64,000 bases of DNA. Origin: an uncultured virus (IMG/VR IMGVR_UViG_3300005436_000011). Taxonomy: Duplodnaviria; Heunggongvirae; Uroviricota; Caudoviricetes. This document shows, piece by piece, positions 3,884-52,167 of this stretch. Both the position numbers and the translations under genes were made by a program. The first letter of the stretch is position 1; each line of letters starts with the position of its first letter. Location: the IMG/VR virus record IMGVR_UViG_3300005436_000011; one strand, 5' to 3'. The notes beneath the pieces are model-generated. The model had not been told where the DNA came from. It did not search any database and was given only the letters and a program-made list of their open reading frames with translations.

Positions 3884-4554
3884 TCCCACACGACTTTCGC
3901 TTCCGGGACTGCGACCGCTTCGTCGTCGACCAGGTCTTCAACAAGCGAGAGTACGCGCTCGCCAGCCCGCGGGAGGGTGAGCGCGTCCTCGACCTCGGCG
4001 CGCACGTCGGGTCCTTCACGCGCTGGGCGCTCGACCAGGGAGCCGGCCACGTCACGGCGGTGGAGGCGGCACCCGAGACCGTGGCTCTGCTCCGCGGCAA
4101 CGTCGCCCTCGACCCGCGGGTCACCGTCATCGCCGCCGCCGTGGTCGGCGCGCCGCTGGCCACGGCCACGCTGGCGCTGCCGCCGCGGGGCAACCCGATG
4201 GGTGCCTACGTGGTGGGCACCAAGCGGCCCGCCGGCAAGAGCTACCGCGGCTACCAGCTGAGCGAGGTAGCCACGGTCTCCCTGCCGTACCTCCTCGAGA
4301 TCTACCAGCCCACTCTCGTCAAGTTCGACATCGAGGCCAGCGAGTACGACGTCCTCACCCCGCACGTCGACCTCCTCAGGCAGCAGGGCGTGCGGTGCCT
4401 CATCGGTGAGTACCACGTCAACACGCAGGCCCTTCTCGACCGCGCCACGCGGCTCGTTAGCCTCCTCGACGCCGCCGGCTACACCCGCTCCCGGTCCCTG
4501 CCCGGCAAGCCCACGGGGTGGGGCCGCACGATCTGCCACGACCTCGCCCCGTAG
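3880..4554 (+). CDS. FkbM-family SAM-dependent methyltransferase
   Basis: VLDLGAHVGSF, AVEAAP, VKFDIEASEY motifs. GTGA overlap with the upstream stop. Confidence 0.8.
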   Translation: MIPHDFRFRDCDRFVVDQVFNKREYALASPREGERVLDLGAHVGSFTRWALDQGAGHVTAVEAAPETVALLRGNVALDPRVTVIAAAVVGAPLATATLALPPRGNPMGAYVVGTKRPAGKSYRGYQLSEVATVSLPYLLEIYQPTLVKFDIEASEYDVLTPHVDLLRQQGVRCLIGEYHVNTQALLDRATRLVSLLDAAGYTRSRSLPGKPTGWGRTICHDLAP

Positions 4555-7864: not shown

Positions 7865-8146
7865 ATGACCCACCCCGAACCCGTCACCTGGGATGAGGAC
7901 GCCTACCGCGAGGCCGCCACCGTGACCGGCCCGGTCTGCGCCGAGTGCTCCTTCTGGGACCACGACGCGCGCCGTCGGGTGCAGGTTCGCCACGCCTCCG
8001 CCGCCTCAATTCGCGAGTGCCACGCCAAGGCTCGAGACGCCCAGGCTCAGGCGCGGGCCGACCTCGAGGCGGAGCGCCTCGTGGAGCGCTTCTTCGAGGA
8101 GCGCGGCGGCTCAGACCACGACCCATACGAGCGCGACCGGTTCTGA
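7865..8146 (+). CDS. hypothetical protein
   Basis: ATG at 7865 after GAGGAG; CxxC...H...C residues. Confidence 0.6.
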   Translation: MTHPEPVTWDEDAYREAATVTGPVCAECSFWDHDARRRVQVRHASAASIRECHAKARDAQAQARADLEAERLVERFFEERGGSDHDPYERDRF

Positions 8147-8153
8147 GAGAGTC

Positions 8154-8197
8154 CGCCAGGCTCAGGGGTTTACAAACCTCTGAGCCTGGTGTAGGCT
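8154..8197 (+). promoter_or_regulatory. hairpin-embedded promoter TTTACA-N17-TAGGCT
   Basis: 18-bp inverted repeat 8154-8191 (two G.T pairs) centred on the -35 (8169-8174). Confidence 0.75.
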
Positions 8198-8253
8198 GGT
8201 ACCAGCAGCAAGGAACAAGGAACAAGGAACCAGGAACCGGAAGGACCGAGTCG

Positions 8254-9129
8254 ATGACCGCGACGCTCACCTCCCAGCTCGTCTTCACCACCCTCGCCGG
8301 CAAGGTTGCCAGCCCGGGCACCGTGGCCGTGACCGACCTCGGCGTGAAGGCAACCGGCCAGGTCATCGTCAAGGCCACGCAGGTGGTCATCGCCTCCCTC
8401 GGGCGGCAGCCGCACCCCACCCGGGTCGGCACCACGATCTTCACCGCCACCCACATCGACGGCACCCAGGTCTACCAGGACGTCTACAAGCGCGAGGCCC
8501 TGGCGGCCATCGTCAAGCACCACAACCAGCTCGTCGCCACAGCTGACGTTGTCGCCGTCACGCACGGTCCGGTTGTCCTCCGCCCCGGCGAGCTCTCCGG
8601 CAAGCAGGTTCGGCAGGCGATCGACCACCCCAAGCTGAGCGGCAGCGAGGTGTACGCGCTCTCCAACTACACCGGCCCCGGCTACCGGTCGATGAACGCG
8701 CACGTCCTCAAGGGCGACGCCAGTGACGCCAGCGAGCACACCCGGGAGCACGTCAAGCACCTCGCGGCGGCGATCGAGCGCTCGGCCGTCACCAAGCCCA
8801 TCGCGCTCCTCCGCACGTTCCCGGCGCACACCGCCCTCCGGGTGTTCGGCGAGGTAGGATCGCAGGTGGGCGGCACGTTCACCGAGCAGCGGTTCACGTC
8901 CACAACCACCGCCGGCCACGCCTTCCCGGCGTTCGGACCGGTCCAGGTCCACTACCACGTCCGTCCCGGCGCCCGGGCCCTGGACGTCAACCGCCACAGC
9001 GGTGGCAATCACCACGACGAGTACGAGGTGATCATGCCTCCCGGGCAGAGCTACCGCATCCTCGCCGACCGGCTGGTCAGCGGCACCCGAGTCATGGAGA
9101 TGGAGACGATCACCGATGAGCCTAGCTGA
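8254..9129 (+). CDS. ADP-ribosyltransferase (VIP2/Alt-like R-S-E family) with uncharacterised N-terminal domain
   Basis: ALSNYTGPGYRSMN helix, LLR, FTSTT, EYEVIMPPG catalytic motifs. Confidence 0.8.
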   Translation: MTATLTSQLVFTTLAGKVASPGTVAVTDLGVKATGQVIVKATQVVIASLGRQPHPTRVGTTIFTATHIDGTQVYQDVYKREALAAIVKHHNQLVATADVVAVTHGPVVLRPGELSGKQVRQAIDHPKLSGSEVYALSNYTGPGYRSMNAHVLKGDASDASEHTREHVKHLAAAIERSAVTKPIALLRTFPAHTALRVFGEVGSQVGGTFTEQRFTSTTTAGHAFPAFGPVQVHYHVRPGARALDVNRHSGGNHHDEYEVIMPPGQSYRILADRLVSGTRVMEMETITDEPS

Positions 9130-37311: not shown

Positions 37312-40300
37312 TCAGTCGGTCGTCTTGTTGAGGTGATCGTCGCCGTGATTCAGCTGGAACGAGTGAGCCTCGTCCCACGGCCCGACCACGGTCGGGACCC
37401 GACCGACGTACGCGGTCAGCGGCTTGCCCAGGCGCTGGGCGGCCAGGGCGCGGTGGTGGCCGTCGACGACCTTGAGCTTGGGGTCACCGGGGGTGTCGAC
37501 GAGGATGGCGGGGTGGGTCGGCTCGCCGGCGCGCAGCTTGGCCTCGAAGCGGTCCACGGCGGCGTCCTCGTGGTGCGCGGCCCACCGCGGCTCGTTGCTG
37601 AAGTCGATGAGGCTGGTGGGGACGTTGAGGGGCCCCACCCAGGTCGCGTCGTCGACCCACGCGTAGCCCTCGTCGCTGAAGTTTTGGCTCATCAGGGCCG
37701 CGACCTCGTCGGCGGTCGCGGCGCGCGTTCCCTCGCTCGCCGGCCGGCTCAGGGCGTTGAGCACGAGCTGCAGGTCAGCCCGGAGCTCGGCGCGAACCGA
37801 CGGGTTGTCGACGAGGTGCGTCGGGTCCCACCACGCGAGCGCCTCCACCTGGTCCCCGTCGGGGTCATCCGGGTTGGTGACGCGGTCGCGGCCGTCGAAG
37901 ATCGGCACGTCGGTCTCGTGGTCGACCTCGTAGACGAAGCCTAGCCACCGGCCGCTCTCCGTGCCCCAGCCGGGCACGAAGCGGCCGACCGGAAGGACGC
38001 ACCCGGTCTCCTCCTGCCACTCGCGGATGGCGGCGCTGCGGGGCTGCTCACCGGGCTCGAGGCAGCCACCGGGGAACTCCCAGGAGCCGGCCGCGGGATC
38101 GTCGTCGGTCAGGCCGCGCTGCAGCATGAGCACGCGGCCGGTGTCAGCGGCGCGGACCGCGAGGCCGGCGGCGACGCAGGCTCCCTTGGTCGCGGTGCGG
38201 CCCTCCCACCGGTCGCACACGTCGATCAAGTCGATCGAGCCCGACACGAGGTCGCACGAGTGCGTGTCGAGGTGGAACATCACGCAGGTGCCGCAGGATC
38301 GAGCGCGGCTCGCCGCTGGCCGGTAGTGAACCGACTCCTTGGACACCTTGACGCGCTTGCCGAGGTCGCCGACGTTGGGCGCGCGGCCGCGGTCGTTCGC
38401 GTCGCCCGGCGGCTCGCCTACCGACGACCGACCCGTGCCAACGCCACCTTGTGGCCAGCCACCGGTGCCTGAACTTGGATAGCGTGGAGGCTGAACGTCG
38501 ACGTCCGTTTGGTGACCATGGGTGAGGGGTACCCGGTCATCGTGACCACCGGAGGGGTGATGCGCTTGAGAGTGATCTGACCCGTCGTAGAAGCCACCCA
38601 TGTAGCCGTTGGGCGGCTGCGACGGAACCCACCGCGGGGGCTCACCCCCAGCCGTGCTCGACGGCACCCCGCCGGGAACCTCCGTCCCATCACCGAGGTG
38701 CCTGACGGGTGACCGGCCGCCACCGCCGGCCGCGGCCTGAGGAACGCGTGAGTCGATCCACGACTCCTGGCCGTTGAGACTGATCACTCGTCGCGTGGCC
38801 TTGACGACCCGGATCGCGTCATCGACCTCGAGACCCTCCGCCATGTGCTGGCTGATGCGAGCCAGCGCGTCGGGGTTGACGTTGCGTGGAACCCAGGAAC
38901 TGACCTGTCGACCCTTCTTCACGTGCCGACTCAGGGCCTCGAGCTCGCTGCTCGCGGCCTTCTCCAGGGCCGCCGCGTCTGCCACCTTGGCGGGCGCGGC
39001 GGTCGGCTTCTTGCCGGTCGCGGAGCGGGATGGCGCGTTGCCCGCGCCGGTGGCCGCCGCGTGCCCGGGTGTCTCGACGTGCGGGCTCGGCGTCGGCTGC
39101 GTGGGAACGCTGCCCTGGCCGGTGTTCTGGATCTCACCGGTGCCGGCCGCGGTGACCGGCAGCTTGGGCTGGACGCCGGGGAGCGCGAGCTGGCCGGGAG
39201 GCGTGGGAGCCGGGCTGCCGGGCGTGGCTCCCGGAACGGTCCCGGGAACGGCGGCGGTCGCCATGCCGAACGGCACGGGGCCGTTCTTGCTGAGGAAGAC
39301 CGGGCCGCTGGTCTCCGGCAGGCCCCAAGGCTGCAGGTTGAGCTCGTCCCGGGCCTCGTCGACGCTGCGCAGGCCGTTCTCAACCTGCTTGATGAGCAGG
39401 TCGGTGAGGAGGGACTGGTCCTCCTCCGCCTCGAGGCCCTCGAAGACGAACTGCATGTCGTCCTGGCCGCAGACGTATTCGAGGATGTTGTTGATGATGT
39501 CCGCGATGAACATCAGGGTCGGCTTGGTGGCCTTGCGCTCGCCCACGTTCTCGGCCATCTTGGCCATCTGATGCGACGCGCCTGGCGACATGGAGGTGCT
39601 GACCTTGGGTGCGATGCCCAGCTCCATGGGCATGATGTCGAACGCCATGCAGACCTGCGTCATGACGATCTCGTCGAACGCGTCGGCGAGCTGCACGCCG
39701 CGCTGCGGCTCGACCTTCGTGCCCGGCGGCAGCACGATGATCTTGTGGTGCCAGGCGGGGTCGCCGGCGAACGCGTTGAGGGCGTCCTGCAGCTCGCGGA
39801 TCTGGTTGGGGGTCATGTTCTCGTCGCCGGGCGACATGTAGACGGCCGGGACGGTGCCCTCGCGGAAGTAGTCGAGCTGGTAGCCCTGCTTCTGCAGGCC
39901 GGACAGCACGGGGATCATGGCGCGCTCGATGGGCGGGAAGCCGTACGGCGTCCACCGCCGGGGCACCATGGGCACGTACAGCAGCTGGTCGCCACGGAAC
40001 TGCGCGACCTGGCTGCCTCGGAGGCCGCCGTCCTGGATGTCCATGTCCGTCAGCATCTTGATGAAGTCGCTGCGGGGGACGCCGTAGAGGTACTGCTGGT
40101 AGGCCGGGGCCGGCGGGGCCGGGAAGCCACCCTGCATGTCGTAGAGCGGTCGGATGGTGGGGCCGCTGATCAGGTTCAGGCTGTCGAGGTCGCTGCCGAG
40201 CAGGCCCTTTCCCATGCCGCGGCCGCGCTTCGGTCGCAGGAAGAGCGAGAGCGCGTCGAAGACGAACACCTCCTCGAGGAAGGCGTCGATGAACGTGCTC

Positions 40301-40869
40301 CAGCTGTAGTAGTCCGGGTCGGGGCGCTTGAAGAACTTCTTGGCCTTGGCGCGGCGCTCACCGAAGTCCTTGAACCAGGCCTTGTCGCCGCGGTTGGCCT
40401 TGGCTGCCTCCTGCGTGGGCATGATGTCCCACTCGAGGCCCCGGATCTCCGACTTGCGGAGCTGGATGCAGGCGCGGGCCACGGAGTACAGGTCGGCGAG
40501 GGTGCGCAGCGTGCTGAAGCTGGCGAGCTTGAGGCCCTCCGAGCCGGGCGTGCCGACCGGGAGGTTCCAGCCGACGCGGTACTCCTCGCGGCGTGGGTCG
40601 GCCCGACCGCTCGCGGGGTCGGGCTCATCGACGGGAACCGGCAGGATCGGGCTGAACGGCCCGAACGCGCCCTGCGTGAAGGTCGCCGGTGGCCGCGGCA
40701 GGAAGCCGGCGTAGGCGTTGGCGTAGCCGTGCTGCTCCGCGTAGCTGACCACCGCCGGCGACAGGGAGCCGGTGGAGATCCCCGATCCCTGAGGCGCGGG
40801 CGTGGGCCGCGCGCCGCCGGGTGAGTAGCGCGCCGCGCGCAGGATGGATCTAGTCGACGCCACCGGCAA
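37312..40869 (-). CDS. portal protein fused to HiPIP-like, Nudix and ParB-like domains
   Basis: Portal core (YGFPPIE, YFREGTVP, SVDEARDELNLQP), SCGTCVMF...C..V.G.I....C..W, Nudix box GGCLEPGEQPRSAAIREWQEETG, ParB/Srx VVDGHHRALAA. Confidence 0.85.
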   Translation of the reverse strand: MPVASTRSILRAARYSPGGARPTPAPQGSGISTGSLSPAVVSYAEQHGYANAYAGFLPRPPATFTQGAFGPFSPILPVPVDEPDPASGRADPRREEYRVGWNLPVGTPGSEGLKLASFSTLRTLADLYSVARACIQLRKSEIRGLEWDIMPTQEAAKANRGDKAWFKDFGERRAKAKKFFKRPDPDYYSWSTFIDAFLEEVFVFDALSLFLRPKRGRGMGKGLLGSDLDSLNLISGPTIRPLYDMQGGFPAPPAPAYQQYLYGVPRSDFIKMLTDMDIQDGGLRGSQVAQFRGDQLLYVPMVPRRWTPYGFPPIERAMIPVLSGLQKQGYQLDYFREGTVPAVYMSPGDENMTPNQIRELQDALNAFAGDPAWHHKIIVLPPGTKVEPQRGVQLADAFDEIVMTQVCMAFDIMPMELGIAPKVSTSMSPGASHQMAKMAENVGERKATKPTLMFIADIINNILEYVCGQDDMQFVFEGLEAEEDQSLLTDLLIKQVENGLRSVDEARDELNLQPWGLPETSGPVFLSKNGPVPFGMATAAVPGTVPGATPGSPAPTPPGQLALPGVQPKLPVTAAGTGEIQNTGQGSVPTQPTPSPHVETPGHAAATGAGNAPSRSATGKKPTAAPAKVADAAALEKAASSELEALSRHVKKGRQVSSWVPRNVNPDALARISQHMAEGLEVDDAIRVVKATRRVISLNGQESWIDSRVPQAAAGGGGRSPVRHLGDGTEVPGGVPSSTAGGEPPRWVPSQPPNGYMGGFYDGSDHSQAHHPSGGHDDRVPLTHGHQTDVDVQPPRYPSSGTGGWPQGGVGTGRSSVGEPPGDANDRGRAPNVGDLGKRVKVSKESVHYRPAASRARSCGTCVMFHLDTHSCDLVSGSIDLIDVCDRWEGRTATKGACVAAGLAVRAADTGRVLMLQRGLTDDDPAAGSWEFPGGCLEPGEQPRSAAIREWQEETGCVLPVGRFVPGWGTESGRWLGFVYEVDHETDVPIFDGRDRVTNPDDPDGDQVEALAWWDPTHLVDNPSVRAELRADLQLVLNALSRPASEGTRAATADEVAALMSQNFSDEGYAWVDDATWVGPLNVPTSLIDFSNEPRWAAHHEDAAVDRFEAKLRAGEPTHPAILVDTPGDPKLKVVDGHHRALAAQRLGKPLTAYVGRVPTVVGPWDEAHSFQLNHGDDHLNKTTD

Positions 40870-47245: not shown

Positions 47246-47701
47246 TCAGAAGTTACCGTTCGATACCTGAAGGCAGGGGATCCCGACCACGTTTCGCCAC
47301 AGGTCGACGACCTGGTTGCGGTCGTCGAAAGCGGCGATGACGTTGAACCTGGGCTGGATCAGAACGTAGAAGAGGTGCCGCTTCAGGTCGACATCCCTAG
47401 CGTAGCGCCACTCGTCGGTGTCGGGTCGCAGGTAGAGGCTGTGCTTCACGACCTCACGGCTCAGCCGACCGTGCAGGTGGGCCGTGATGAAGTCGGTGGT
47501 CGCGTCGTGGCAGACGACGTTGCGGCCGGACGCGAACACGAGCTCGTCGCCGACGTCGAGCAGGGCCCGCGCGACGGCGAGCACGGGCTCGTTGGGGAGG
47601 TCCTCGTGGACCCGGTCCCAGTCGTAGGGCCCGCGGCCGCCCGGGGCCCGCAGGGCCAGGGTGCCGTCGACGTCGAACAGCCAGGCTCGCCTTCTCGCCA
47701 C
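47246..47701 (-). CDS. HAD-family polynucleotide 3'-phosphatase (T4 PNKP C-terminal-like)
   Basis: FDVDGTLA, GPYDW..V..DLPN, SGR, K, FDDRNQVVDLWR..GIPCLQV..GNF. Confidence 0.85.
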   Translation of the reverse strand: MARRRAWLFDVDGTLALRAPGGRGPYDWDRVHEDLPNEPVLAVARALLDVGDELVFASGRNVVCHDATTDFITAHLHGRLSREVVKHSLYLRPDTDEWRYARDVDLKRHLFYVLIQPRFNVIAAFDDRNQVVDLWRNVVGIPCLQVSNGNF

Positions 47702-47947
47702 GTGTCTGCTCCGTTTCCTAGATACGACGATGGGGCCGGGTTGACCCGGCCCCACCATCTCTCCGCGCTCACATCCAAGGTGATGAGATTACTGTACCAC
47801 TGATGTATCGCCTCTACCAGCGACTCGCCCGGCGAAGCAGCCAGAGCCAGAAGCCGAGGCGGTGCCGTCGCCGGCGTCGTCGGCGCACCTCAGCCACGAC
47901 CTGGCAGCGCGGGAAGCTGCAGCCACCGGCGCACCAAACGGCGCACC

Positions 47948-49654
47948 TCAGCTCTCCCACGGCCAGCGCCCCGCCTGGCCGGCCTCGAGGGTCAACGGCA
48001 GCCCGAACATGGCGTCGGTCAGGCCGCCAAGCTCGTGACGGTTGCTGCCCGGCGTGACCGGCATCATCGTGTTCTTGTAGCCGGCGAGGTTGAACGCGTA
48101 GATCGGCACGTTCCGCGGGGCAGCCGAGTCGACGTCACCCACCCCGTAGTTTCCCATCGTCTGACAGTCGGTCAGGATGATGACGCGGCTGTGCTCAGGC
48201 CGCAGCGTCTCGCGGACCGCCCTCGCGATCTCGGTGCCGCCGCCGGCGCTCCCCTGGTATCGCTTGAACGTTTCCACCGCCTTGAGCAGGCTCGTGCCTG
48301 GCTCGACACCGGTGACGTGGAACTGCGTGTTCGCGAAGCCCCACGCGTCGACGCCGGCCGGGTTCCGGATCTTCAGGGCGAGCCCGAAGAGCGCGGCCGC
48401 GGTCGAGTAGTCCATCTTGGAGTTTTCGGACAGCTTGCCCCAGGTCATCGACGCGGAGGTGTCGATGAGCACGAGGGTCCGGCCCGGCAGTACGGGCACG
48501 TTCGCCAGGGAGTGGTTCACGGCCTGCTCCAGGGCGTGGCCCCACCGCAGGGACGGGGCCTCGAGGTAGGCGTTGAGGAACCGGAACGGCAGCTGACGGC
48601 TCTTCCGGATCTGCTCCGGGTCGGCGAGCCGCGTCAGGAGCGGTCCGATCACCGAGTCCGGGACGCCGGCCTGGTCGAGGCCGCGCAGGTTGCGCAGCAG
48701 GGCCATGTAGCCGAGCTTGGGCAGCGCGAGCTGCCAGATCTCGGCGTCGGTGACGGCGCGGCCCTCGCTCGGCTTCTCGCCGAGCCACGACTTGAGCCAC
48801 TCCCACTGGCCGACCATCGCCCCGTGGATCAGGTCGAGGGCGACCTGGTCGTCCGCGAGGGCGCGGCGCGCGAGGTCGTGCCGCTCGCTGGGGGTCAGGC
48901 GCGCCATCGCCCACCGGACCCGGACGTGGGTCAGGGACTCGGGCGGCTCCGCCCCGTCGCGGCCGTGCCGGGCGGTGATCGCCCACCGGAACAGGTCGTC
49001 CTGCCAGGTGCGCTCCGCGCCGGGGGTGCGGACGTCGGCGTGGGTCAGCTCGAGGACGTCGCCGAACCGCAGGGCCTTGCCCTCACCGTCGTAGCGCAGG
49101 AACGCGGCCTCGTCGTAGAGGCGCGTGACGGCGTCGGCGACGCCGCGCTTGACCGGCTTCGGCAGCTTGACGACGATCGTGCCGTCGGGGCGGGTGACGC
49201 CGAACCGGTGCCGCCAGTAGGCGAGGAGCTCGCCCGGCTCATCGGGGCGCTGCAGCACCGACGTGACCAGCTCGCGGTTGCCGTCACCGTGCAGGCCGGC
49301 GGTGAGCCGGGCGTGCACGGCCTCCGCGGCGAGCAGGATCGACGCGGTGCGGATGTTGCCCGGGCCGCGCAGCCACGAGAGGAAGACCCGCACCCACGGC
49401 CACGTCTCCTCGTTGACGGCGAGCTGGGCCACGAGCTCCCGCAGGCGCTGCACGTTCTCGTCCGCGGTGTCGTAGAAGCCCCTCTCACCAGCGAACCGCG
49501 AGACCGCCCGCCTGAAGAGCTCGGACTGCGCGTCGCTCTGGAAGCCGGGCGCGCCCTCGTGGGTGAGCCCGTCCGGGGTCGCGCTGAGCGTCCGCAGCGG
49601 GCCGCTCGCGGCCGCGCGCCGCGGTTGGGTCGATGCCTTGTTGAATCCTGCCAC
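47948..49654 (-). CDS. rsr: Ro60/Rsr TROVE-domain RNA-binding protein with vWA domain
   Basis: THEGAPGF, RPDEPGELLAY, LPKPVKRG, YMALLRNLR, SRQLPFRFL, MIDAS DTSASM, ILTDCQ. Confidence 0.93.
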   Translation of the reverse strand: MAGFNKASTQPRRAAASGPLRTLSATPDGLTHEGAPGFQSDAQSELFRRAVSRFAGERGFYDTADENVQRLRELVAQLAVNEETWPWVRVFLSWLRGPGNIRTASILLAAEAVHARLTAGLHGDGNRELVTSVLQRPDEPGELLAYWRHRFGVTRPDGTIVVKLPKPVKRGVADAVTRLYDEAAFLRYDGEGKALRFGDVLELTHADVRTPGAERTWQDDLFRWAITARHGRDGAEPPESLTHVRVRWAMARLTPSERHDLARRALADDQVALDLIHGAMVGQWEWLKSWLGEKPSEGRAVTDAEIWQLALPKLGYMALLRNLRGLDQAGVPDSVIGPLLTRLADPEQIRKSRQLPFRFLNAYLEAPSLRWGHALEQAVNHSLANVPVLPGRTLVLIDTSASMTWGKLSENSKMDYSTAAALFGLALKIRNPAGVDAWGFANTQFHVTGVEPGTSLLKAVETFKRYQGSAGGGTEIARAVRETLRPEHSRVIILTDCQTMGNYGVGDVDSAAPRNVPIYAFNLAGYKNTMMPVTPGSNRHELGGLTDAMFGLPLTLEAGQAGRWPWES

Positions 49655-49683: not shown

Positions 49684-49723
49684 ACGAGGCCCCCACCAGC
49701 CGTTAAGCTGGTGGGGGCCTCGT
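49684..49723 (-). terminator. 17-bp hairpin between the RNA cluster and rsr
   Basis: ACGAGGCCCCCACCAGC / GCTGGTGGGGGCCTCGT perfect inverted repeat. Confidence 0.6.
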
Positions 49724-49765
49724 GGTGGACGGTCTCAACCGCCTGCCTTGTCGGTTGAGACCGAG

Positions 49766-49842: not shown

Positions 49843-49943
49843 CGTGAGCTGGACCGGGACGAGACCTGAGGTGACGGGCGGCGTCTGTTTGCAACCAATT
49901 TGCGAAGTAGCCGCTCGTCCGCGCACCGTCCCGGCCGCTCACG
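49843..49943 (-). ncRNA. short Y RNA-like gene (Y1)
   Basis: Closing stem + GGTGCG, inner stem, TACTTC, small hairpin, CAGGTCTC, the same scaffold as the longer copies. Confidence 0.7.
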
Positions 49944-49947
49944 AGAT

Positions 49948-50026
49948 CACCACGAGACCTGGGACGACCTGGGGCGACTCTTCAAATTAGCAGTTTGATA
50001 TAGCCCCTGGTCTTTGCACCGTGGCG
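49948..50026 (-). ncRNA. short Y RNA-like gene (Y2) carrying an anticodon stem-loop mimic
   Basis: GGTGCAAAG...CAGGTCTC scaffold; apical TCAAA-CTGCTAA-TTTGA hairpin. Confidence 0.7.
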
Positions 50027-50047
50027 AAGCCTGTGTGTAGTTGTGGG

Positions 50048-50192
50048 TCGACGCGAGACCAGGTGGCTGGCGGCGTGATCCTCGAAATGCTGCCGATTAC
50101 ACCACGTCCCCGAGGGGACGGCGGGATTCGAACCCGCACCTCAACCTAATCAGGGTTGTGTGAAGTAGTCGCTGGCCGTCGCACCGCGTCGA
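50048..50192 (-). ncRNA. YrlA-like Y RNA (Y3) with tRNA-like domain and extra anticodon-like arm
   Basis: GGTGCGA/TACTTC/TGGTCTC scaffold; T arm GCGGG-TTCGAAT-CCCGC, loop-closed acceptor stem, D arm; CAACC-CTGATTA-GGTTG arm. Confidence 0.8.
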
Positions 50193-50199
50193 TGAAGTT

Positions 50200-50285
50200 G
50201 TGGGAACCGACTGACCTGGGTTGCCCCGGCCCATAGGCTATGACCGCCGCGTCTGGTCTCACGCTCGGTTCTAGACGTGAGCCAC
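50200..50285 (-). ncRNA. unclassified structured RNA with predicted pseudoknot
   Basis: CTCACG/CGTGAG hairpin whose loop GAACCGA complements downstream TCGGTTC; GCAA tetraloop hairpin; GTGG/CCAC closure. Confidence 0.45.
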
Positions 50286-50292
50286 GTTGCAT

Positions 50293-50423
50293 CACCTCGA
50301 GACCTGAGCGTCGGTCGGGGTAGCCGCTTGGCCGCTGCGGCGAACGACCGGGGTTGAGACCGGTCGATGGGATTCGAACCCATGATTCTTGTGGAAGTAC
50401 CCGCTCGACTTCGCACCGAGGTG
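50293..50423 (-). ncRNA. YrlA-like Y RNA (Y4)
   Basis: GGTGCGAAG/TACTTC/CAGGTCTC scaffold; T arm ATGGG-TTCGAAT-CCCAT; CGACCGG/CCGGTCG acceptor-like stem; D-like arm. Confidence 0.8.
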
Positions 50424-50430
50424 CCTTGCG

Positions 50431-50505
50431 TGGCTGCCGATGGACTTGAACCACCGACCCCCGCCTTATCAGGGCGGTGCTCTAACCTGTCTGAGCTAGA
50501 CAGCC
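50431..50505 (-). tRNA. tRNA-Ile (GAT)
   Basis: Cloverleaf; CCGCC-CTGATAA-GGCGG anticodon arm. Confidence 0.9.
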
Positions 50506-50509
50506 GTAC

Positions 50510-50607
50510 GGTGAGATCCTACCACCGGGAGGGAGTCGAACCCGCTAGGTTGGTCGCGACACCAACCCGTCGTCCGGACGCGGAGTTGAACCGAGCCGGA
50601 TCTCACC
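50510..50607 (-). ncRNA. unclassified RNA with two T-loop motifs
   Basis: 10-bp closing stem GGTGAGATCC/GGATCTCACC enclosing GG-TTCAACT-CC and GGG-TTCGACT-CCC plus an 8-bp hairpin. Confidence 0.55.
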
Positions 50608-50631
50608 TGAGCGACCTCGCGTAGTCGCCTG

Positions 50632-50703
50632 CGCCGGAGACGGGGATCGAACCCGCGACCTCTCCCTCGACAGGGGAGCGCTCTTCCATTGAGCTACTCT
50701 GGC
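50632..50703 (-). tRNA. tRNA-Asp (GTC)
   Basis: Cloverleaf; CTCCC-CTGTCGA-GGGAG arm; G discriminator. Confidence 0.9.
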
Positions 50704-50707
50704 TTAC

Positions 50708-50778
50708 GTGGTCCTCTGGCCGCTGAGGTACACCCCCTCGAAGTGGAGGTGAGGGGACTCGAACCCCCGACTTCCCAC
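50708..50778 (-). ncRNA. circularly permuted tRNA-Ala-like RNA
   Basis: Order T arm, CACCTCC-A, short linker, GGGGGTG, D arm; G3:U70 pair and A73; no anticodon loop. Confidence 0.65.
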
Positions 50779-50780
50779 CG

Positions 50781-50854
50781 TGACTGCCGCTGGACTCGAA
50801 CCAGCTACCTTCCGAGTTTCAACCGGACGCTCTCCCAGCTTGAGCTAGGCAGCC
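50781..50854 (-). tRNA. tRNA-Phe (GAA)
   Basis: Cloverleaf; TCCGG-TTGAAAC-TCGGA arm. Confidence 0.88.
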
Positions 50855-50856
50855 AA

Positions 50857-50966
50857 GCACACGGTGAACCATCGCCGATCCATCAGCATCGAACGCGATG
50901 TTCGATGCTTTTACCACGGACCAGGGACTCGAGTACTGCCCGTGGTGGGCTGACACCCGTGCGTGC
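50857..50966 (-). ncRNA. unclassified multibranch structured RNA
   Basis: Terminal complementarity plus ACCACGG/CCGTGGT and AGCATCGAAC/GTTCGATGCT stems between two tRNAs. Confidence 0.4.
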
Positions 50967-50975
50967 CTTCCCTTG

Positions 50976-51047
50976 TACCCCACGCCGGGATCGAACCGGC
51001 GCCTTCCGCTTGAGGGGCGGAGGTGACTACCACTACACCAGTGGGGC
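50976..51047 (-). tRNA. tRNA-Glu (CTC) with non-canonical C33
   Basis: Cloverleaf; TCCGC-CCCTCAA-GCGGA arm; body resembles actinobacterial tRNA-Glu. Confidence 0.8.
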
Positions 51048-51053
51048 GTGAAA

Positions 51054-51206
51054 CCTCACCGAGACCATTGAGCCTGCCCTCGGTTTTCTTTCTGACTCTT
51101 GCTCTGCCAAGTTGAGCTACCCCACGACCGAGGTCGAGGGGACGGGACTTGAACCCGCAACCCAGAGTTCCGCTTGAAGTATCCGAGTGCGTTCGCACCG
51201 GTGAGG
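51054..51206 (-). ncRNA. YrlA-like Y RNA (Y5), most canonical copy
   Basis: CCTCACCG closing stem, GGTGCGAA, TACTTC, T arm GCGGG-TTCAAGT-CCCGT, loop-closed acceptor, TAGCTCAACTTGGCAGAGC D arm, TGGTCTC. Confidence 0.85.
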
Positions 51207-51276
51207 CTTCGTTGATCGCCGGTTGACGCCTGGTGGCCGGTCGTTCTGACTGCCGGGCTGAACCGGTGATGGTGAA

Positions 51277-51306
51277 ACCGTATCAGACAGCAACGAGCGT
51301 TGTCCA
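51277..51306 (-). promoter_or_regulatory. candidate promoter for the RNA cluster, TGGACA-N18-TACGGT
   Basis: Extended -10 TGn-TACGGT upstream of the first RNA element; back-to-back with the rightward promoter. Confidence 0.5.
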
Positions 51307-51330
51307 GGGTAAATCTCAACAACTTTGCTG

Positions 51331-51359
51331 TTTACATTCACCGCCCGTGCTGGTAGGGT
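51331..51359 (+). promoter_or_regulatory. SigA-type promoter TTTACA-N17-TAGGGT
   Basis: Same family as the left-arm promoters. Confidence 0.7.
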
Positions 51360-51390
51360 CGTACCAGGCAGGAACGAGCGAGGGAGTCAG

Positions 51391-51681
51391 ATGGGCAGGG
51401 ACAAGCCGGCCTTCAAGAAGGCCGACGCGGTCACGAGCGCCAAGGACCGCACGCGGAACGGCGTCATCGTGGAGGTCCTCGGGGCCAACGAGAGGGGCGT
51501 GTTCCGCTACAAGGTGGTCTGGCCCGCCGACAGGATGCGCGAGACCGAGGAGCTGGAGACCGACCTGGTGCCGCTCAAGGGAGGCAGCGGCGGTCGTCGC
51601 CACGTCACCAACGTCTTCAAGGGCACCGTCCACGGCAAGCTGACCCAGTCGGGTGACGGTACCTTCCTCTTCGACGAGTAG
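51391..51681 (+). CDS. hypothetical SH3-like protein
   Basis: GGGAG RBS, ATG at 51391. Confidence 0.6.
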   Translation: MGRDKPAFKKADAVTSAKDRTRNGVIVEVLGANERGVFRYKVVWPADRMRETEELETDLVPLKGGSGGRRHVTNVFKGTVHGKLTQSGDGTFLFDE

Positions 51682-51708
51682 CCCCCGAGCCAGGAACGAG
51701 GAACTGAG

Positions 51709-52167
51709 ATGAGCGAGCAGATCAGACGCGGCACCCGCGTCAAGGTCAACGAGAGCAACCGCCTCGAGTCGATGCACGGCAAGCGAGGCACCGTCGTCGC
51801 GACCCTGCCCGACGCGACCTACATGGTCTACCTCGACGAGCTCGAGGAGGTCGTCGGCTTCTTCCGGAGCGAGATCGACGTTCGCATCGAGCCGGTCGTC
51901 AAGCGGATCCGGACGCGCGACGAGCTGCTGACCCTGAAGGCCGAGCTGGGTGTTGGGAGCGACTGGCACGAGCCGGACAACGAGGGCGTCACGGCGAGCG
52001 TCCACGGCGTCAGCTTCGACAACGCCGGCTTCTGGTACCGCGACAACAGCGCCGGCAAGACCTACGAGGAGCTGCACGTCGTGCTCCGCAAGGACGGGGA
52101 CGAGGTCGCCGTCGTCAACCTCGCGACCCTGTTCGCGTTCGCGACCGGCTACGAGGGGGAGGGGTGA
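51709..52167 (+). CDS. hypothetical protein
   Basis: GGAAC leader; LGV..DWHEPDNEGVTA.V.G.SFDNAGF and VNLATLFAFA resemble conserved actinophage hypothetical proteins. Confidence 0.7.
   Translation: MSEQIRRGTRVKVNESNRLESMHGKRGTVVATLPDATYMVYLDELEEVVGFFRSEIDVRIEPVVKRIRTRDELLTLKAELGVGSDWHEPDNEGVTASVHGVSFDNAGFWYRDNSAGKTYEELHVVLRKDGDEVAVVNLATLFAFATGYEGEG

Follow-up and report, generated by a model that had tools for sequence, protein, structure and literature searches.

YrlA RNAs (Rfam RF02553), which are approximately 110–150 bases long, have a layout in which a T arm is followed by a sealed acceptor stem and a D arm and which ends at the position of the anticodon stem, and they carry a Ro60-binding stem with a 5' GNCGAAN0-1G motif (hereafter designated the handle). 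Chen et al. (2014, PMC4201824) noted two Y RNAs per species and described one YrlA, that of M. smegmatis with a 7-bp acceptor stem, that is cleaved by RNase P and gains CA. Both that paper and Wang et al. (10.1101/312249), whose crystal structure backs a tRNA L-shape for YrlA, leave open the aminoacylation of Y-RNA tRNA domains and the identity of their binding partners. Two tmRNA forms are also anticodon-less with alanine identity, namely the permuted mRNA-less tmRNA of jakobids, which carries G3:U70 and A73, both named there as alanine determinants, and is in two pieces after tRNA-type processing (PMC3590771), and the tRNA-domain-only tmRNA of phage DS6A (Hudson et al., PMC4131195). Permuted tRNA genes of Cyanidioschyzon and some archaea likewise place the 3' half before the 5' half with the acceptor end sealed. 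Here we describe a 71-base element of a soil phage that is real and conserved as a permuted tRNA-like element. From sequence comparison it is best read as a small non-coding RNA gene of its own, which corresponds to the tRNA-like head of an alanine-type YrlA and lacks the handle that binds Ro60.

Results

A permuted tRNA-like element between two tRNA genes

The element lies in a virus record of 111,341 bases and 69% GC that encodes terminase, portal, and tail proteins; a stretch of 64,000 nucleotides from it is hereafter the window. The host is probably an actinobacterium, to judge from the high GC, from a transglycosylase domain of resuscitation-factor type, and from the kinship of the phage's Ro60 protein with those of actinophages. 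The phage also encodes an ORF with an ADP-ribosyltransferase domain (window 7945–9129, plus strand; Pfam PF03496, 36.6 bits) and a 1185-aa ORF in which the portal protein is fused to a NUDIX domain (37312–40869, minus strand), and glycosyltransferase and epimerase genes lie within its structural region. The parts of the element are as follows.

50708..50778, minus strand: handle-less circularly permuted tRNA-Ala-like RNA gene (sequence, fold, alignment, handle scan)
50778–50775 with 50711–50708, minus strand: closing stem, 4 bp
50774–50769, minus strand: tRNA-type variable region
50752..50768, minus strand: T arm with G49:U65, G51:C63, and a canonical T loop
50731..50751, minus strand: acceptor stem, 7 bp, sealed by A73 and a 6-base linker
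50751–50745, minus strand: acceptor 3' strand, with U70 at 50747
50744 and 50743–50738, minus strand: A73 (50744) and the linker, which begins with C74 (50743)
50737–50731, minus strand: acceptor 5' strand, with G3 at 50735
50713..50728, minus strand: D arm, with a 4-bp stem starting with an unusual C10:G25 (a stem fixed by the search patterns used below)

Read on the minus strand, the 71 bases run from the first closing strand through the variable region, T arm, acceptor 3' strand, and A73 to the 6-base linker, and then through the acceptor 5' strand, U8–A9, the D arm, and one base to the second closing strand. G3 (50735) pairs opposite U70 (50747), and the tRNA tertiary and consensus positions U8, A14, G15:C48, G18–G19, and the T-loop consensus are all found. 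The T arm, acceptor stem, linker, and D arm that the original prediction had placed here are thus all present, and the permuted order that it proposed, 3' half before 5' half, is borne out by sequence, fold, and pairing across the homologues described below. Its break point in the anticodon loop has to be given up, there being no such loop, with only 1–2 bases before and 4 after the closing stem. The flanks are as tight as had been claimed, tRNA-Phe ending at 50780 and tRNA-Asp starting at 50703.

The minimum-energy fold of the element is exactly the structure first drawn for it. Its folding energy is no better than that of shuffles (z 0.17; 106 of 200 equally good), so that fold stability alone is no evidence for the element. 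A stringent search for the permuted layout gave two matches in the phage genome, against none in 40 genomes simulated at similar composition. The element was called neither by ARAGORN nor by Rfam at gathering score.

The surrounding cluster of tRNAs, Y-RNA-like modules, and Ro60

The neighbours of the element, in the order of the minus strand, are listed below.

51277..51306, minus strand: candidate cluster promoter, two hexamers 18 bases apart, found by eye
51054..51206, minus strand: Y1, handle-bearing YrlA-like RNA (Rfam YrlA match, handle motifs)
50780..50854, minus strand: tRNA-Phe(GAA) without encoded CCA, directly upstream of the element
50631..50703, minus strand: tRNA-Asp(GTC), directly downstream of the element
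50293..50423, minus strand: Y2, handle-bearing YrlA-like RNA with a 7-bp acceptor stem and G3:C70
50048..50192, minus strand: Y3, handle-bearing YrlA-like RNA with a long variable arm and G3:C70
49947..50026, minus strand: Y4, Y-RNA-like module, handle without tRNA domain
49854..49934, minus strand: Y5, Y-RNA-like module, handle without tRNA domain
47948..49654, minus strand: Ro60/Rsr (TROVE) gene, 568 aa (Pfam TROVE 49.6 bits, cut-off 23)

The Ro60 protein is 35–39% identical to actinophage 'Ro-like RNA binding proteins', and its gene lies 1.05 kb downstream of the element on the same strand. Five modules share a paired outer handle, with the 5' motif at 51199, 50417, 50185, 50020, and 49927 and the 3' motif at 51066, 50304, 50060, 49959, and 49866, and three of them (Y1, Y2, and Y3) contain a permuted tRNA domain, all upstream of Ro60. 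A similar 5' handle motif stands ahead of the YrlA adjoining Ro60 in an unrelated bacterial genome. The five modules (49854–51206, minus strand) exceed the two Y RNAs per species noted by Chen et al. Below the cut-off of 69 bits, Rfam YrlA matches fall at 51074–51189 (37.8 bits, whole model), at the element (25.5 bits, model positions 24–84 of 114), and at 50087–50138. Among the permuted domains of the cluster, only the element has no handle; the original description of it as standing alone is right in this respect, but not in its setting among five Y-RNA-like modules close to Ro60.

A contig from an RNA library, which may derive from DNA and whose strand and ends are not shown, covers 50605–50771 with no difference to the window and crosses the linker intact; further RNA-library contigs, which may likewise be DNA, cover 50769–50924 and approximately 49980–50416. 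These contigs weakly suggest transcription of the cluster and are compatible with either a precursor or an uncut RNA; the stretch 51043–52000, which has no RNA-contig cover, was not counted as evidence. The candidate promoter hexamers are kept in two related loci (L003 and L005) with different spacers, and a promoter consensus scan gave no promoter-like site, the candidate at 51277..51306 included.

Several further structured RNAs were seen in the cluster. Directly after tRNA-Asp, four loci (the window at 50510–50607, minus strand, L003 3855–3972, L005 4072–4195, and L035 ~2265–2385) share a conserved RNA whose long outer stem encloses two T-loop motifs and a loop bearing GG; it has no Rfam match at gathering score. 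Two strong hairpins lie between tRNA-Met and the start of Ro60 (49684–49764, minus strand), with hairpins of differing sequence at the same place in L002, L003, and L005. A run of short hairpins (50860–50975, minus strand; fold z –2.5) lies between tRNA-Glu and tRNA-Phe, where related loci have a structured insert of 80–120 bases. Directly downstream of Ro60 is a gene for a polynucleotide kinase/phosphatase HAD domain (47246–47758, minus strand), which suggests an RNA-repair module; no RtcB was seen in this phage genome.

Homologues and fixed alanine determinants

Retrieval anchored on Ro60 gave six loci (L001–L006), L002 and L006 being too short to include the region of the element. L001 is identical to the window; in L005 an orthologue stands between the genes for tRNA-Ile and tRNA-Asp, its linker altered and its closing stem kept by compensating changes. 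L003 and L004, which are close relatives of the phage, have no such element, which is therefore dispensable.

In three pattern scans, positions 3, 70, 73, and 74 were left free; these scans gave 24 loci from viruses, 19 from metagenomes, and 2 from genomes. Because the search patterns prescribed the D stem, its invariance proves nothing, and G1/Y72/G7/Y66 were imposed in two of the three open scans. A fourth scan, in which A73–C74 and a canonical D stem were fixed, served as a control set (at least 119 viral loci), and a fifth (at least 119 viral loci), again with positions 3, 70, 73, and 74 free, added the locus L311. From 164 loci, 119 of them supplied by the control scan, a script retained at least 34 distinct permuted elements; it required that all seven acceptor pairs form and that no half fall within a tRNA called by ARAGORN, and what it dropped consisted of tandem tRNAs or of stems with imperfect pairing.

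This search for permuted homologues in phage tRNA clusters, which had been advised together with the original prediction, yielded at least ten distinct handle-less members (nine from the first three scans and L311 from the fifth), 68–99% identical to the window copy. The alanine set proposed for that copy, G3:U70 and A73, is present in it and, together with C74, in all ten members across eight different acceptor stems, and a decayed YrlA remnant without conservation of G3:U70 can be set aside. The predicted absence of a Ro-binding scaffold also holds, since none of the ten has a handle motif within 60 bases upstream. In every member the acceptor stem is 7 bp and the sealing loop 6–10 bases. 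The flanking tRNA pairs are Phe/Asp, Ile/Asp, Trp/Asp, Leu/Leu, Ala/Ala, and Ala/Pro.

In the control comparison, the at least 25 other permuted elements in which the 7-bp stem is complete include 5 with G3:U70. When the script itself divided the set, it passed over L049 and L050, two members behind an odd tRNA-Ala that ARAGORN does not call, and gave 7/7 versus 7/27 (Fisher p 0.0006), a value that ignores kinship and overstates the case because the members are kin. Every one of the 180 stem cells in an alignment of nine members is paired, and both sides vary in 6 of the 20 pairs, including acceptor pairs 4–6 and two closing-stem pairs; when the register is slid, pairing falls to 42–58%. L311, found after the alignment was made, fits it, with G3:U70, A73, and C74, and lies between two tRNA-Ala genes.

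Some forms lie outside this family. At L306 a relative retains the closing and D stems of the family, but its acceptor stem has 6 bp and is closed by only four bases, and alanine identity is absent. Five low-GC or long-RNA forms that share the D stem carry C3:G70. At L041 2150–2500, L046 1220–1560, and L017/L044, longer conserved non-coding stretches end on their 3' side in permuted tRNA domains with C3:G70; these stretches match no Rfam family at gathering score. Directly downstream of a DUF7873 gene in G002 lies a second permuted tRNA-like RNA (L058; G002 110208–110347, minus strand), whose acceptor stem is long, and at L010 3790–4070 (plus strand) two permuted tRNA domains stand approximately 190 bases apart in one non-coding stretch. 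A link to GOLLD or ROOL RNAs was dropped, with no Rfam match to them in 15 loci, nor in 9 loci at E ≤ 0.05.

Wider surveys added no member among the loci examined. A search with model R1 over 151 genomes of the phylum of the Actinomycetota carrier G003 gave nine matches at E ≤ 1e-8, the survey being weak because only 29 candidates per genome were scored; the seven loci examined of its eight new ones were YrlAs or tandem tRNAs. When the cluster was compared by BLAST with 50,697 records of cultured phages, most of the 40 matches listed were to tRNA-Met, and an element-sized BLAST against phages and plasmids gave no wedged C10:G25 member among the 12 matches examined, which were tandem tRNAs, YrlA-like RNAs, or plasmid forms.

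Presence of the element without a detected Ro60 gene

Two near-complete phage genomes, G002 (155 kb, 100% complete) and G006 (160 kb, 98%), carry the element, and no TROVE/Ro60 match was found in either or in the Actinomycetota MAG G003, also a carrier. In G001 the TROVE gene is 24 kb away, and the complete genome G005 has Ro60 and no element. Ro60 lies within ~4 kb on the same strand in the window, L005, and L035/L036, and not in G001, G002, G003, or G006 (L033, L034, and L049 being too short for this count). From these genome sequences, Ro60 is not required for the presence of the element.

Pfam scans of 169 ORFs of the present phage (G000) and 150 of the 182 ORFs of G002, many of them without any family, contained no synthetase, SmpB, Fem/MprF-type transferase, or CCA enzyme, and no partner protein common to both emerged. 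RtcB was found in one of five records searched (G002).

Relation to tRNA-Ala and to alanine-type YrlAs

Among 1289 tRNAs of the retrieved loci, a pool that may include tRNAs of the unpublished genome G058, the best-matching isotype was Ala for all ten members, and G3:U70 is present in 64 of its 67 tRNA-Ala. The acceptor stem and T arm of the element agree with the best of these tRNA-Ala at 30 of 32 positions; unlike tRNA-Ala, the element is permuted, has no anticodon loop, and has C10:G25. Five distinct members lie directly behind a tRNA-Ala or Ala-like gene. At L049 1915–1990 and L050 ~4070–4145 (both minus strand), odd tRNA-Ala(UGC)-like genes missed by ARAGORN stand directly upstream of the element, the former scoring 39.8 bits on a tmRNA model. 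Contigs from three RNA runs match 50743–50775, with three differences in the one piece listed; beyond the match they read, judged from the loose end, as an ordinary tRNA-Ala(UGC) begun from its 5' half.

Alanine-type stems also occur in other permuted RNAs, which were found by alanine-type BLAST queries and left out of the G3:U70 test. The cultured Streptomyces phage BRock has an unannotated handle-bearing YrlA beside Ro60 (L331 ~1455–1570) with A73, C74, and an alanine-type stem identical to those of L033 and L050, and a Novosphingobium plasmid has a handle-bearing YrlA beside Ro60 with the same type of stem, A73, and C74. On Nocardia and Verrucosispora plasmids there are forms that seem to stand alone and that have a canonical D stem, G3:U70, and a CCA in the gene. 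At L052 2495–2575 and L055 2490–2570 (both plus strand), from actinobacterial plasmids, permuted elements of alanine type that encode CCA stand by themselves; in these 5-kb loci no neighbouring tRNA gene is listed and Ro60 has no match. These sequences fit either loss of the handle from an alanine-type YrlA or descent of both from tandem tRNA-Ala genes. As the members are kin and five of them directly follow tRNA-Ala or an Ala-like gene, their G3:U70 may have been inherited from an ancestor made of tandem tRNA-Ala.

Discussion

The element resembles YrlA in the order of its arms, in its sealed acceptor stem and its end at the anticodon-stem position, and, in this genome, in having Ro60 encoded on its own strand less than 4 kb away; with the M. 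smegmatis YrlA it shares the 7-bp stem, A73, and C74. It differs from YrlA in having no handle, in its length of 71 bases, in its C10:G25 D stem in place of the GCTC D stem of seven seed sequences, and in its occurrence in phages without a detected Ro60 gene; the M. smegmatis seed sequence has G3:C70, whereas G3:U70 is fixed in the present family. The lack of a handle, the paired D stem, and the low scores thus place the element outside membership of YrlA and tmRNA, and yet it belongs to an already known kind, since some handle-bearing YrlAs have the same alanine stem. The algal and archaeal permuted tRNAs brought in for comparison by the original prediction are the wrong match because they are re-ligated into decoding tRNAs; the topology of YrlA fits the element. 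The element would work as a YrlA tRNA domain and possibly also as an mRNA-less two-piece tmRNA. In the literature searched, mostly outside subscription papers, no description of a handle-less alanine-type form was found.

We propose that the element is processed and alanylated to give a two-piece decoy, a reading to which as a whole we assign a probability of about 0.5. It would be co-transcribed with the cluster, as the RNA contigs weakly suggest. Judging from the spacing, 3' processing of tRNA-Phe upstream may set its 5' end and RNase P cleavage at the 5' end of tRNA-Asp its 3' end. The RNA would fold into a tRNA L-shape, for which covariation supports the secondary structure and the YrlA crystal structure suggests the tertiary one. 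By analogy with the M. smegmatis YrlA, RNase P would then open the linker at G1, and the 3' piece would be trimmed to C74 and completed to CCA; the removal of the linker with CCA addition in the original prediction is in this sense already published for that RNA (PMC4201824, in part).

Host AlaRS would presumably charge the two-piece RNA through G3:U70 and A73. AlaRS ignores the anticodon, so that alanine charging needs none. This, together with cleavage of CCA-less precursors by RNase Z (PMC10424219), makes release and charging by host enzymes plausible, and we consider linker opening, CCA completion, and charging somewhat more probable than their failure. The charged body, which would not decode and would offer no loop to anticodon nucleases, might serve the phage as a decoy or sink for readers of the acceptor end or elbow, for example, tRNA-directed anti-phage toxins or EF-Tu; given the preceding steps, this speculative role has about even odds.

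The best-surviving alternative, still unlikely, is that the RNA stays sealed and mimics a tRNA elbow for an elbow-reading protein, G3:U70 being a relic of tandem tRNA-Ala. Most YrlAs are uncut (PMC4201824; 10.1101/312249), an origin of YrlA from dimeric tRNA transcripts has been proposed (10.1101/312249), the RNA contig runs across the linker, and the stem of L306 is short and sealed. A relic wobble should drift, however, and U70 is kept in all ten members while positions 66–68 and 71 vary; the stem length of 7, A73, and C74 are likewise fixed, unlike in the neighbours Y2 and Y3.

Less probable again is a miniature two-piece tmRNA, charged with alanine, that rescues or jams stalled ribosomes or titrates SmpB. 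In tmRNA the D loop is open and bound by SmpB, whereas the element has a full, paired 4-bp D stem and a tRNA-type variable loop, and best resembles tRNA-Ala. Its layout and identity set are those of the permuted mRNA-less tmRNA of jakobid mitochondria (PMC3590771), and the DS6A RNA is thought to titrate SmpB (PMC4131195); the idea also draws on Nawrocki et al. (PMC11915505). Among the tmRNA models (RF01849–51, RF04321, and RF02544), the best match is cyano_tmRNA, whose 26.3 bits come from the acceptor stem together with the T arm, but it covers 46 of 288 model positions and is far under the cut-off of 70; no tag frame follows the element, and none of the five records searched has a tmRNA above cut-off.

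Two further explanations are both very unlikely. The element might be a sixth Y-type RNA of a phage Ro60 particle, as cofactor or substrate without a handle of its own; Ro60 is indeed near it in the window, L005, and L035/L036 (24 kb away in G001), and T-arm RNAs of D. radiodurans bind Rsr weakly (PMC4201824), but the handle is missing from all ten members, G002, G003, and G006 have no TROVE match, and G005 has Ro60 without the element. Alternatively, it might be a processing spacer or a decaying remnant, functionless as free RNA, as its constant position between tRNA genes and its absence from close relatives would allow; against this, every stem is intact with compensatory changes, and the element moves as a unit among different tRNA neighbours. 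Reopening of a circularised permuted gene into a decoding tRNA-Ala in the red-algal style is the least likely of all, since, for all its initial layout like some algal permuted pre-tRNAs and the RtcB of G002, the flanks are ~6–7 unconserved bases with no common anticodon, the element has no anticodon loop to rebuild, and RtcB was found in one of the five records searched and was not seen in the present phage.

Returning to the processed and alanylated form, the 71-base RNA without handle and with fixed alanine determinants would be a minimal substrate for RNase P, CCA addition, and AlaRS. Such genes stand unannotated in phage tRNA clusters because tRNA finders miss them. That phages and mobile tRNA arrays of high-GC bacteria encode in them a dedicated, Ro60-independent class of anticodon-less RNA, made by host enzymes into a two-piece alanyl-RNA with its own job in the translation conflict between phage and host, be it bait for tRNA-end toxins, a sink for EF-Tu, or a codon-independent donor of alanine, is a tentative proposal that we rate below even. 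If charged, the RNA would be a new type of tool in the phage–host fight over tRNA and, if this is true, an aminoacylated RNA of the bacterial world that is neither tRNA nor tmRNA.
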